Shown here in pieces: positions 98-32,651 of a stretch of DNA of 53,742 nucleotides. The position numbers and the translations under genes were made by a program. This DNA is from a virus. Lineage: Duplodnaviria > Caudoviricetes. The notes under the pieces are model-generated. The model was not told the origin of the DNA, did not search any database, and worked only from the letters and a program-made list of their open reading frames with translations. Location: positions 1-53,742 of IMG/VR virus record IMGVR_UViG_3300040985_000553; one strand, 5' to 3'. Numbering within the stretch: the first letter of the stretch is position 1; every line of letters starts with the position of its first letter.

Positions 98-2050
98 AGA
101 GCACTCGATTGGAACTCGACGGACGCCCACTCCATCGGTCGCCGTCAGGATGCTGCATCGGAATACTGTGATGGGTACATGGCTGAGTTCGTCAACATCC
201 CCGCCACCGCCTTAGCTGCGACGAGCTTCGGCGAGACCAACGACGATGGTGTATGGGTGCCGAAAGAATACACAGGATCGTACGGCACCAACGGCTTCTA
301 CATCACAGGCGAGGACAGTGCTGATCTCGGCGCAGATTACTCCGGCAACAGCAACGACTTCACCTCGTCAGGGCTGACCAGCGACGATCAGCGCGGCGAC
401 ACTCCGACGCTAAATTACCCTACTATGTCTCCCATTTCAGTTTGGGACGGGGCAAACGCAATACTCAGTGAAGGCAACCTTCGCACCGAAAATAACGCCT
501 CGACAACGTACTTTGGAAATACGTTGACTATGCAGCCTCCGAAAAGCGGCAAATGGTATTTTGAGGCCTCGATAGTTACGGCTGGGCAGTTTAGTTTTGG
601 GATAGAGGCGACGAACAAAGATTTTTGGTCGAGCGGCTCACCCGGCCAAACGGCTACTGGGTACGCCCTCCTTAGCAATGGCGCGGGGACACGCGCTACA
701 AGGAATAATAACACTAATACAAACACTCGCAGCGCCGACACCGCAGGTGATGTTTTCCAAATCGCTATGGACTGTGACACAGGCGAGTTGTGGCTGGGTA
801 GAGAAAACACTTGGTATGGCGGTGGCGATCCTTCTGCGGGTACTACCCCAACGTACACGTTTGACGCGGCCTTGGAATACGCGATTGTCCTTACAAGCGG
901 AACAAATGGTAATGGTTCTATCCGTTATGTTCAGGGACCAGATTGGACGTACACTGCCCCTACCAATTTTAAGGAACTCAACACCGACAACCTCCCCGCG
1001 CCGACAATCAAGGACGGCACGGCTCACTTCCAGTCCACACTGTACACGGGCAATGGCACAGCTATTGGCTCTGGTGGTCTGGCAGTATCCCAGAGTGAGA
1101 ACAGCACATTCCAGCCTGACCTTGTGTGGATTAAAGAGCGAAACGGAGCAGCAGATCACGCTTTATATGATGCTGTTCGTGGAACAACAAAAGATTTAGC
1201 GTCTAATAACTCAAACGCTGAAACAACTGAGACAGAAGGATTGACAGCGTTCGACGCTGCCGGATTTACGGTGGGTAACCTTGCCAAGGTCAACACCAGC
1301 AGCGACACTTATGTTGCATGGCAGTGGTTAGCTGCTAACAGCACAGCATCAAATTCTGATGGCAGTATTGCCTCTACTGTGTCAGCTAACACAACATCAG
1401 GATTTAGTATTGTTACCTACACTGGTGACGGAAATGATAATGCAACCGTTGGTCATGGATTAGGAGTAACCCCTAAAACGGTTTGGTTGCTTCCGCGATC
1501 AAACGGGGACAACAAACAGGTTTCAAACTGGGAGACAGGCGTTACAGCATTTACTGAAGATTTGAAATTGAATGTTGCTGAAGCCGCAAATAGTTCTTCA
1601 ACGCGTGTAAAAGGGGGCAGTTCGACAACCTTTACGCTTGGTACTGACGTAAATGTTAATGGAAGCGGCAGGACATATCTTGCGTACTGCTTCAACGAAA
1701 TCGAGGGCTTTAGTAAATTCGGCACTTACACTGGAAATGGGTCTTCAGATGGCGCTTTTGTATACTGTGGATTCAGACCTGCTCTAGTTATATTGCGCCG
1801 AACAAATGCGGCTGAAAACTGGGTGATGGTTGATAGTGCTAGAAACGAATATAACGTAGCAAATCTTAGGCTTTATGCAGATACAACTAATGCTGACATC
1901 ACATCCACAACGCATGATTTCTTGTCTAATGGATTCAAACTTCGTGCTAGTGATGGTGGCGTAAATGCCTCTGGCAACCCTTACGTTTTCATGGCATTTG
2001 CAGAACACCCCTTTGGCGGCGATGGTGTCGCCCCCGTCCCGGCTCGATAG
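2..2050 (+). CDS. 3' part of a receptor-binding/tail protein (LamG/ConA-like and SPRY-like domains); full gene 53295->2050 across the join, about 799 aa
   Basis: Frame is open from base 2 and in phase with ORF 179-2050 and with the ORF starting at 53295. SPRY-like signature GKWYFE...GDVFQIAMDCDTGELWLG; repeated YTGNG motifs typical of phage tail lectin proteins. Confidence 0.8.
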   Translation, partial: YDSNEAASADRITITVNGVEQAVSTAVAVDSARALDWNSTDAHSIGRRQDAASEYCDGYMAEFVNIPATALAATSFGETNDDGVWVPKEYTGSYGTNGFYITGEDSADLGADYSGNSNDFTSSGLTSDDQRGDTPTLNYPTMSPISVWDGANAILSEGNLRTENNASTTYFGNTLTMQPPKSGKWYFEASIVTAGQFSFGIEATNKDFWSSGSPGQTATGYALLSNGAGTRATRNNNTNTNTRSADTAGDVFQIAMDCDTGELWLGRENTWYGGGDPSAGTTPTYTFDAALEYAIVLTSGTNGNGSIRYVQGPDWTYTAPTNFKELNTDNLPAPTIKDGTAHFQSTLYTGNGTAIGSGGLAVSQSENSTFQPDLVWIKERNGAADHALYDAVRGTTKDLASNNSNAETTETEGLTAFDAAGFTVGNLAKVNTSSDTYVAWQWLAANSTASNSDGSIASTVSANTTSGFSIVTYTGDGNDNATVGHGLGVTPKTVWLLPRSNGDNKQVSNWETGVTAFTEDLKLNVAEAANSSSTRVKGGSSTTFTLGTDVNVNGSGRTYLAYCFNEIEGFSKFGTYTGNGSSDGAFVYCGFRPALVILRRTNAAENWVMVDSARNEYNVANLRLYADTTNADITSTTHDFLSNGFKLRASDGGVNASGNPYVFMAFAEHPFGGDGVAPVPAR

Positions 2051-31667: not shown

Positions 31668-31767
31668 CGTTCCTCCAGATGAAAGTGAGTAGCTGGTCGA
31701 GTGCCAGATACGTTATTATAATGATCATTGCTGATCCTGTCAGCACAATTCCGACGTGTTCAATCAT
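31609..31767 (-). CDS. small membrane protein (52 aa)
   Basis: Manual translation MIEHVGIVLTGSAMIIIITYLALDQLLTFIW... Confidence 0.45.
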   Translation of the reverse strand: MIEHVGIVLTGSAMIIIITYLALDQLLTFIWRNDDKATKDKAEKPLRKETDG

Positions 31768-32026
31768 AATTCTTTGTCCATTCATCTTCGGACATCACCC
31801 GATCCCCGTACTGGAGGATGTCGTTATTGTAGGTGTCTCCGTACTCCCACGATCCGTAAGTCATGGGTGAACGGGCAGCAACGTACCAGCGTGAGTACTG
31901 GATTGTCTTCTCTTTCTCGGGGTGTTGGTACGTCTTCAGGATACGCCATTCCCACCCTTGGGAATTAGTATAGATGGCGTAAGGGTTATCTACTGGTCGT
32001 GTCTTTCCGAATGGGGTGCGTGGCAT
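31760..32026 (-). CDS. conserved phage early protein (88 aa, MPRTPFGK...)
   Basis: GGGAG RBS; WEWRILKTYQ...WEYGDTY. Confidence 0.65.
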   Translation of the reverse strand: MPRTPFGKTRPVDNPYAIYTNSQGWEWRILKTYQHPEKEKTIQYSRWYVAARSPMTYGSWEYGDTYNNDILQYGDRVMSEDEWTKNYD

Positions 32027-32056
32027 TGTCTTCTCCCGTTGGTGGGTTGTGTGGGT

Positions 32057-32123
32057 GATTTCCACAGACGCCCGAAGGCGTTTCGGCTGGTTATCAGTCA
32101 GCCTCATCAGTGTGGCATCAATC
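32057..32123 (-). ncRNA. type I hammerhead ribozyme
   Basis: Minus strand CCACA-CUGAUGA-GGCUG(9-nt loop)CAGCC-GAAA-CGCC(UUCG)GGCG-UC-UGUGG: complete core and three perfect stems. Confidence 0.9.
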
Positions 32124-32128
32124 GTGTT

Positions 32129-32380
32129 TCATGTTCTCAGTCTCCAGCTTCGCTCACCGGTCGCCGCCCAAGTTTTAAGTAGCTTCGGCTCTGAGAAAGA
32201 CACGGCGTCTATTTCCTCATCGCGCCATTCGTAATCACTGAGATCATGGGCAGCCTTTTCTGCCTGTTCTTGTAAATACGCTAGATCAGTGGGATCATCC
32301 ATGTCCCGATGAGTTTCCACCGTCACCACAGAACTCTGCTGTATTGTACGGTAGACTTTGATTTCATATTGTTTAGTCAT
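32129..32380 (-). CDS. hypothetical early protein (83 aa)
   Basis: GGAG RBS; sits between the tRNA-like RNA and the hammerhead. Confidence 0.65.
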   Translation of the reverse strand: MTKQYEIKVYRTIQQSSVVTVETHRDMDDPTDLAYLQEQAEKAAHDLSDYEWRDEEIDAVSFSEPKLLKTWAATGERSWRLRT

Positions 32381-32414
32381 TTTAGTTCTCCAGTTGGTGC
32401 CGTATGTTGGTTAA

Positions 32415-32538
32415 GGTGGGGGTGAGCGGAGTCGAACCGCTCGTTAGGTAGCTGTACCTACCCTGCTGCATTGTACAGACCTCCAGCACGATAGTCGTGC
32501 CTTCGTAGGCTCTACAACATTCACTCGCCAGAACCCCC
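32415..32538 (-). ncRNA. tRNA-like RNA, 124 nt, non-canonical
   Basis: GGGGGU/ACCCCC-A-CC terminal stem; T-arm GAGCGG-UUCGACU-CCGCUC; internal hairpins; no canonical anticodon loop. Confidence 0.65.
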
Positions 32539-32651
32539 GTAATATCTATTCCTCTTTGGTTTCTTCAATTTGCACAGCTTAATCTATGGTCATAGAAAAG
32601 TCTAATGCTATTTCTGCATGGCAGGTATGTCGTCCACGCATGGCTTCTATG

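Follow-up and report, generated by a model that had tools for sequence, protein, structure and literature searches.

A predicted type I hammerhead ribozyme with a pseudoknot in an intergenic spacer of a marine podovirus-like phage

Genomic context of the element

The stretch of DNA analyzed in this report, hereafter the window, is a single IMG/VR virus record of 53,742 bp that is estimated to be 91% complete. Its rightward genes encode the terminase, the portal and virion proteins, and its leftward block consists of small ORFs followed by genes for a primase-helicase, DNA polymerase I and ribonucleotide reductase. The source is a marine podovirus-like phage: its DNA polymerase is nearest to those of Pelagibacter and Roseobacter podoviruses (35-41% identity), and the stretch is present in marine metagenomes. 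A hammerhead motif with a full core and three stems occupies the 102-nt gap between two small genes, which we call p83 and p88 after the lengths of their products. The coordinates of these and all other features are collected in Table 1.

The upstream gene, p83, belongs to no PHROG or Pfam family, and the pattern method revealed no relatives of it among viral contigs. The start of the downstream gene, p88, required correction, because gene calling had produced a 115-aa ORF that begins at an AUG within the CUGAUGA sequence of the ribozyme core. In all 37 loci with p88 homologs the alignment starts at MPRTPFGK, and the closest relative shows DNA homology only from ~32043 onward. The N-terminal extension is therefore spurious, an artefact of the core AUG, as an earlier reading made from the sequence alone (the sequence-only reading) had proposed.

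Two kinds of putative transcription signal were observed in the vicinity. A sigma-70-like promoter match (11/12, CTGACA-17-TATAAT) lies directly after the p88 stop codon, and three terminator-like hairpins are located upstream of a gene for a 257-aa protein. If these signals are real, the hammerhead would reside in a unit extending from ~34.4 kb to ~31.75 kb, in which p88 is the last gene.

Another candidate structured RNA, which resembles a tRNA, is found between p83 and an ORF for a cell-wall hydrolase. Its acceptor-like stem (GGGGGU...ACCCCC) precedes ACC and adjoins a T-arm-like hairpin with the loop UUCGACU; a long extra hairpin takes the place of the anticodon arm, and the fold has a predicted energy of -52.8 kcal/mol (z -2.79). 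ARAGORN made no call over the window, this RNA included, and Rfam gave a weak partial resemblance to the 3' ends of tmRNAs. A homolog with a compensated T-stem occurs at one IMG/VR locus (L109:3682-3848, minus strand); other matches to the pattern of the tRNA-like 3' end were mostly ordinary phage tRNAs and were set aside, and a comparison with deposited phages gave no match. Contigs from three metatranscriptome runs cover just the gap that holds the tRNA-like RNA (only 32334-32623), and stop short of the hammerhead.

Table 1. Coordinates of features in the window and of two hammerheads in deposited phage genomes
Feature	Position	Strand	Remarks
Terminator-like hairpins	35049-35013, 34931-34908, 34419-34399		upstream of 257-aa gene
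Cell-wall hydrolase ORF, 133 aa	32652-33053
tRNA-like RNA, ~120 nt	32414-32534	minus	between hydrolase ORF and p83
p83, 83 aa	32129..32380	minus	upstream ORF; stop codon 32131-32129, 13 nt before hammerhead
GAUU / AAUC	32123-32120 / 32060-32057	minus	proposed extension of stem I
Hammerhead motif	32115-32056	minus	full core and three stems
Shared module, 66 nt	32115-32050		3' limit at downstream CCACA
Stem I, 5' strand CCACA	32115-32111	minus	read off the sequence; descriptor scan
Catalytic core C3-A9, CUGAUGA	32110-32104	minus	matches class core C3 U4 G5 A6 N7 G8 A9
AUG of called 115-aa ORF	32107-32105	minus	ORF 31760-32107; start within CUGAUGA
Stem II, GGCUG / CAGCC	32103-32099 / 32089-32085	minus	span 32103-32085; from sequence
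Pseudoknot 5' strand UGAU, loop II	32096-32093	minus	U32096, G32095, A32094, U32093
Core G12 A13 A14 A15.1, GAAA	32084-32081	minus	from sequence
Stem III, CGCC-UUCG-GGCG	32080-32069	minus	lengthened by pair A32081-U32068 (A15.1-U16.1)
U16.1 and C17	32068 and 32067	minus	scissile bond predicted between 32067 and 32066
Stem I, 3' strand UGUGG	32066-32062	minus	first five bases of predicted 3' cleavage product
Pseudoknot 3' strand AUCA	32059-32056	minus	pairs with UGAU 32096-32093; covariation
Downstream CCACA	32054-32050	minus	could pair with UGUGG 32066-32062; loop 32061-32055
Shine-Dalgarno-like GGGAG	32037-32033	minus	6 nt 5' of p88 ATG
p88, 88 aa	31760..32026	minus	downstream ORF; true start ATG 32026; homologs in 37 loci
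Sigma-70-like promoter match	31715-31743	minus	directly after p88 stop
Type II hammerhead, Streptomyces phage R4 NC_019414 (L074)	~1497-1550		between gp78 and gp77; identified by eye
Type II hammerhead, Podoviridae sp. MW202801 (L073)	~1501-1556		identified by eye

Structure of the element and likelihood of chance occurrence

The topology is that of a type I hammerhead, in which loops close stems II and III while stem I is open. Every core position agrees with the consensus, including the G10.1-C11.1 and A15.1-U16.1 pairs, the GUC cleavage site and position 17, which must not be G and is C32067 in the window. Each of the three stems comprises 5 bp, and loop II consists of 9 nt, ACUGAUAAC. Because all class-defining nucleotides and helices are found, the canonical type I hammerhead announced by the sequence-only reading stands, and by the structural definition of the class we classify the element, on its sequence, as a genuine member. 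Mg2+-dependent self-cleavage that leaves 2',3'-cyclic phosphate and 5'-OH ends is predicted. The cut had been placed correctly at 32067|32066, which is 40 nt before the ATG of p88, and the remaining coordinates in that reading were likewise recovered on the minus strand, as were GAUU and AAUC.

When both strands of the window were scanned with a descriptor, this element was the sole type I hammerhead. In 400 dinucleotide-preserving shuffles of the window, also scanned on both strands, 10 matches reached stem lengths of 3/3/3 bp or more and 5/5/5 bp was never reached, and scaling from the relaxed count suggests a chance rate of ~1e-4 per window. Such a rate is not negligible over a very large scan, and evolutionary support was therefore sought, as described in the next section. 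We do not regard chance as an explanation of the motif.

Thermodynamic predictions depend on the length of RNA considered. For an 81-nt RNA, the predicted fold is the three-way junction, with an energy of -22.4 kcal/mol (z -2.53), and 2 of 200 shuffled sequences fold as well. In a context of 139 nt, the minimum-energy fold favors a hairpin between UGUGG and the downstream CCACA over stem I, so the ribozyme would be inactive at equilibrium. The contig of one DNA run that spans the element is identical to the window.

Related hammerheads in phages

To collect relatives, we used a pattern composed of the core and the stem II of the window with a free loop, CTGATGAGGCTG-N(4-16)-CAGCCGAAAC. This pattern has 22 fixed bases, for which we estimate that far fewer than one match would arise by chance. 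It returned 48 matches at 47 loci in IMG/VR, as well as 13 loci in bacterial genome assemblies (Cyanobacteria, Firmicutes, Chloroflexota, Gammaproteobacteria and Treponema), 11 of which parse as type I hammerheads. With the window included, a complete type I hammerhead can be parsed from 44 of the 49 matches, and these 44 represent 38 distinct sequences; the remaining five are copies of a single sequence with a poor stem III.

In the alignment of the 38 distinct sequences, stem I is 99.5% paired and exhibits two-sided changes at four of its five pairs. The overall covariation score is 0.378, compared with 0.109 in shuffles (0 of 500 reach 0.378) and at most 0.083 when partners are slid. Stem III is formed by unrelated sequences, with 3-12 bp, across the 44 complete hammerheads. 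Stem II is fixed by the bait in members collected with the pattern; however, a bait-free scan of the same loci (526,535 bases) yielded seven further distinct type I hammerheads whose stem II differs with compensation, in addition to three doubtful candidates with 2-bp stems. The three helices with covariation that mark the hammerhead class are all present. The family comprises no fewer than 45 distinct type I hammerheads from uncultured phages.

A covariance model, R1, was built from 44 other family hammerheads, with the window sequence excluded. R1 aligns to the window element over its full length (positions 1-73) with 65.8 bits (E 4.1e-16 by a rough calibration), a score that is partly circular because the members were collected with the window's own stem II as bait; stem I, stem III and the pseudoknot described below provide evidence independent of that bait. 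The next-best match in the window scores 13.1 bits (E 0.32), and the element is the only hit. We assign the element, on this comparative evidence, to a large, widespread and covarying family of phage hammerheads.

A pseudoknot between loop II and the 3' tail

The central part of loop II can, in nearly all family members, base-pair with the nucleotides that directly follow stem I on its 3' side. This pairing takes the form UGGU/ACCA, UAGUU/AACUA or UGGAU/AUCCA, for example, and the window has UGAU/AUCA, a duplex of only four pairs, three of them A-U. At least four contiguous Watson-Crick pairs can form in 33 of 38 distinct members (87%), compared with a mean of 29% when partners are permuted (maximum 61% in 1000 permutations). 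Compensatory changes are present: at alignment pair 24-92, 24 sequences have GC, 11 have AU and one has UA, and at pair 31-90, 24 have UA, five have AU, five have CG and one has GC. A pseudoknot of the kind described for the class is therefore found in both the window and the family. Pseudoknots that link stems I and II have been reported for all three topologies, in ~40% of hammerheads, and mutations in type II hammerheads established that the pseudoknot is required for fast cleavage (Perreault et al. 2011, PMC3088659).

The sequence-only reading had instead extended stem I by pairing GAUU with AAUC. If this pairing formed over a small internal loop, that loop could contact loop II in the style of eukaryotic type I ribozymes. 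The two segments do exist and pair in the 81-nt minimum-energy fold, so the extension is correct as a description of the sequence. As a conserved feature it does not hold: only 5 of 38 distinct members (13%) can pair their 3' tail over 4 bp or more with the 14 nt that precede stem I, no better than the 14% obtained with randomly re-paired partners. Moreover, no more than two contiguous pairs are available there in the closest relatives (L017, L020 and L055), whose tails pair with loop II over 4-5 bp; AAUC also overlaps the covarying strand of the pseudoknot and would compete for it. We consider a functional extension very improbable, and conclude from the covariation that the pseudoknot between loop II and the 3' tail, not GAUU/AAUC, is probably the functional tertiary contact.

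Comparison with Rfam and known hammerheads

The sequence-only reading had proposed an Infernal search against Rfam hammerhead models as a check. This search missed the element, which we regard as a false negative: with Rfam 15 at gathering thresholds, no hammerhead family was detected over the window. The best permissive match was to RF03152 (RAGATH-1-hammerhead), with 18.9 and 20.7 bits against a gathering score of 56.3. RF00008 (Hammerhead_3) gave a truncated match of 17.5 bits against a threshold of 48.5, and RF00163 (Hammerhead_1) was unlisted even at E up to 10 for a 91-nt query; the element falls outside both families on these results. The same is seen more widely, in that 17 family loci (126,877 bases) contained no hammerhead family at Rfam threshold, and for nine family hammerheads in seven loci the best scores, all below threshold, were 39.3 (to RAGATH-1), 32.6 and 26.0 bits. 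Because members do not reach the Rfam 15 thresholds, annotation pipelines will miss such elements.

The individual Rfam families differ from the window element in distinct ways. Like the window element, RF03152 is of type I, stem I being open and stem III capped; however, its model contains an upstream hairpin and a stem II resembling a single base pair, neither of which is matched by the window, where stem II has 5 bp and a 9-nt loop. RF00163 represents type I ribozymes found mainly in eukaryotic repeats, and its topology and core are those of the window. Hammerhead_1 ribozymes use contacts between a loop and an internal loop rather than a Watson-Crick pseudoknot. RF00008, unlike the window element, has an open stem III.

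The closest precedents are hammerheads of bacteria and prophages, in which all three topologies are represented (Perreault et al. 2011, PMC3088659). These share with the window element the core, three covarying helices, a pseudoknot clamp and a location in phage spacers beside variable small genes. Prophage polycistronic RNAs were cleaved in vitro by such hammerheads, and processing into single-gene mRNAs was proposed (PMC3088659), so the proposed role of cutting polycistronic phage RNA is also shared. The main text of that report details the pseudoknot for type II only, and some members of the present type I family may already be included in its supplementary alignments (Dataset S1). A later report described the function of phage hammerheads as still elusive (Weinberg et al. 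2019, PMC6765202).

A blastn search of the 72-nt element against deposited phages produced partial matches only. Most were rejected as stem III-like hairpins or as chance matches within genes, for example in a Paenibacillus terminase. The two matches that we opened are, judged from their sequence, type II hammerheads outside the type I family, and R1 did not match either. They have the order GAAA, stem III hairpin, UC, stem I hairpin and CUGAUGA, with a pseudoknot between loop I and the 3' tail recognized by eye. Like the window element, they exhibit the core, a nearly identical stem III (CGCC-UUCG-GGCG-UC-UG), an intergenic location co-oriented with genes and a loop-to-tail pseudoknot; they differ in being circularly permuted, with stem II open and stems I and III capped. 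In both genomes the downstream coding sequence is annotated as starting at the AUG of the CUGAUGA core (position 1544 in L074 and 1548 in L073). No deposited phage matched 31000-33500 of the window by megablast.

Gene context and distribution

Family hammerheads are located in short spacers, on the coding strand. In 34 of the 38 distinct members, the cut is followed at 19-55 nt by the start of a same-strand ORF of 35 aa or more, in 32 cases with a Shine-Dalgarno-like motif; one of the four exceptions is cut by a contig end. The stop codon of the upstream ORF, where it can be called, is usually within ~16 nt of stem I. When 29 of the 34 downstream proteins were compared with PHROGs (four near-duplicates were left out, as was p88 of the window, which was searched separately), 20 had no family, two were ATPases and seven belonged to families of unknown function.

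Other self-cleaving ribozymes occur in the same loci. Pistol ribozymes (four copies, 40-69 bits) and Twister-P5 ribozymes (two copies, 49-54 bits) are distributed over L016, L029, L030 (two copies) and L031 (two copies), a few kilobases from the hammerheads and on the same strand, and in several loci two type I hammerheads lie at a distance of 0.3-1.5 kb from each other. Ribozyme-rich phage regions are a known pattern, in which cleavage itself appears to matter (PMC6765202).

The hammerhead does not accompany p88. Seven viral loci with p88 homologs (53-67% identity) do not contain even the core heptamer within 200 nt upstream; 30 metagenome loci with p88 homologs (51-98% identity) gave no R1 match at E up to 0.1, and the first 20 of these gave no Rfam ribozyme. 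Two whole records of related phages contained no hammerhead match (0/2). In the closest relative, whose p88 is 98% identical, the upstream gene differs, the spacer measures ~27 nt and there is no hammerhead; DNA homology to the window (98% over 345 nt) sets in immediately 3' of the element, and upstream of this junction every relative has a different gene and a short spacer. Because the element is absent from loci with p88 homologs, p88 expression does not need it, and any gene-specific functional idea is weakened.

p88 itself is a mosaic unit. In seven relatives with an 84-98% identical p88 (L075-L081), there are at least five unrelated upstream neighbors, and homology around the gene begins only ~17-25 nt before the ATG. 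At other loci (L003-L008), perfect hairpins that lack a U-tract, for example with a 7-8 bp stem and a 4-8 nt loop, lie 30-60 nt upstream of p88 homologs, and these may be sites of nuclease processing or stabilizers with an equivalent role.

The closest matches to the element are found in different surroundings. The 66-nt module ending at the downstream CCACA, which marks the 3' limit of the sequence in common, is 87% identical (59/68 aligned columns) to the hammerheads of L017 and L055, whose flanking genes are unrelated to p83 and p88. The phages in question are distant, with ~39-55% amino-acid identity to the window in terminase, portal and a 306-aa structural protein. Many other family loci also belong to distant relatives (~38-41% for terminase and portal, ~55% for the 306-aa structural protein, 38-51% for primase-helicase and polymerase), and three of these (L036, L038 and L045) carry a family hammerhead in another spacer of the early block, upstream of a homolog of the 257-aa protein. 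Judged by this distribution, the element behaves as a sporadic small module exchanged between spacers rather than as a dedicated regulator of p88.

A potential hairpin at the predicted 5' end

The first 17 nt of the predicted 3' product (UGUGG-AAAUCAC-CCACA, 32066-32050) can form a 5-bp hairpin that starts at nucleotide 1. Folded alone, this hairpin has an energy of -5.2 kcal/mol and accounts for 70% of the ensemble. Comparable hairpins with different sequences are present in L015, L017, L020, L055, L034, L041, L046, L048 and others. Terminal hairpins of at least 5 bp occur in 10 of 59 distinct type I members, compared with 5.5 on average after permutation (10 is reached in 38 of 2000 permutations), and those of at least 4 bp in 28 of 59, compared with 19.7 (4 of 2000 reach 28), although the enrichment is modest and the 59 sequences are related and not independent. 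An earlier statistic (26 of 38, compared with 12.6 in shuffles) was discarded because it was confounded by the pseudoknot tail.

Discussion

We consider the best explanation, to which we give a probability of about 70%, to be that a genuine hammerhead, clamped by its pseudoknot, cuts a leftward polycistronic transcript and thereby uncouples the fates of the p83 and p88 RNAs. In this scheme, the RNA would fold co-transcriptionally into the three-helix junction as the transcript emerges, and the 4-bp pseudoknot UGAU/AUCA would hold stems I and II parallel. By established hammerhead chemistry, the RNA would then cut itself after C32067, leaving the RNA that contains p83 with a 2',3'-cyclic phosphate and the p88 mRNA with a 5'-OH and a 40-nt leader that bears its own ribosome-binding site. 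Context and literature suggest that upstream and downstream messages could thereafter meet different fates, and the new 5' end could refold into the terminal hairpin of UGUGG with the downstream CCACA. The likely role is processing of a polycistronic early transcript. We infer cleavage and all of its consequences, namely stability, insulation of translation and a role for the hairpin. Stabilization of the p88 mRNA by its 5'-OH end, as suggested in the sequence-only reading, is plausible and would depend on the host, since RNase E is stimulated by a 5'-monophosphate and the 5'-OH product that the glmS ribozyme generates is a substrate of RNase J1.

A more specific idea concerns the 66-nt module as a whole. 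It might represent a horizontally exchanged cassette of RNA punctuation, in which the hairpin locks the cut against re-ligation and shields the 5'-OH from 5'-end-dependent nucleases; we regard this as tentative, with the odds against it. Such a cassette would be a natural counterpart of RiboJ, a synthetic insulator consisting of a hammerhead and a 23-nt hairpin before the ribosome-binding site, with which an mRNA starts at a defined 5'-OH end (PMC7536230). The way of working would be the same; however, RiboJ is a product of engineering, based on a plant satellite RNA ribozyme, and is unrelated by descent to the window element, in which the hairpin reuses the 3' strand of stem I. In the RiboJ work, a two-fold faster decay was used for the uncleaved mRNA, citing Clifton 2018 (PMC7536230). 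If the cassette reading is true, any gene behind the cassette would gain a defined and protected leader, and the cassette and the tRNA-like element might jointly cut out the p83 message in one piece.

The same mobility could also mean that an active hammerhead is a selfish or neutral module, spread by recombination among phage intergenic spacers with no benefit to the flanking genes. The patchy distribution (absence from 37/37 p88-homolog loci and 2/2 related records), the 87% identity with L017 and L055 despite distant phages and differing flanking genes, the use of a different spacer in the same early region in L036, L038 and L045, and the direct repeat CCACA...CCACA that flanks the module would all fit. 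Even so, we consider this unlikely. Placement is very regular, with the upstream stop codon in most cases right next to the element and, in 34/38 members, a start codon 19-55 nt beyond the cut, which suggests selection on where the cut falls, and the presence of unrelated ribozyme classes in equivalent spacers argues for a need of cleavage as such. In addition, the downstream arm in L034 and L041 differs from the 5' strand exactly at the positions of stem I G-U pairs, which fits selection on RNA pairing; for this reason, we judged a target-site duplication to be a less likely origin of the CCACA repeat than RNA pairing. Alternatively, the downstream CCACA could compete with the 5' CCACA for UGUGG and create a conditional switch, in which the regulated fraction of cut RNA sets the ratio of long to short mRNA. 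The opposing outcomes of the 139-nt and 81-nt folds agree with such competition, as does the enrichment of 5'-terminal hairpins, but this enrichment is modest among related sequences, a convincing competitor is missing in most members, co-transcriptional folding gives the hammerhead a head start and the energy model ignores the pseudoknot. A switch therefore seems decidedly unlikely to us. Hardly credible, finally, is a chance look-alike or a decayed, inactive relic. Failure to reach any Rfam threshold, close relatives that lack the element and metatranscriptome contigs that end before it might be cited in its favor; however, 0/400 shuffles match at 5/5/5 bp, R1 finds the element with an E of 4e-16, the core is at consensus throughout, and the element carries the family-specific pseudoknot and sits exactly in the spacer on the coding strand. 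We accordingly prefer self-cleavage of the polycistronic transcript by a pseudoknot-clamped hammerhead.

Conclusions

The literature has covered phage hammerheads of every topology, their pseudoknots and the idea of transcript processing since 2011, and the window provides an ordinary further example, which adds a clean, single-copy hammerhead from a marine phage. It also illustrates a risk for annotation, in that the downstream gene can be started at the core AUG, as happened in the window and apparently in two deposited phage genomes (L073 and L074). The very regular distances between the cut, the ribosome-binding site and the start codon, together with the apparent exchange of the module between unrelated gene contexts, lead to concrete hypotheses on the role that these ribozymes may have in phages.
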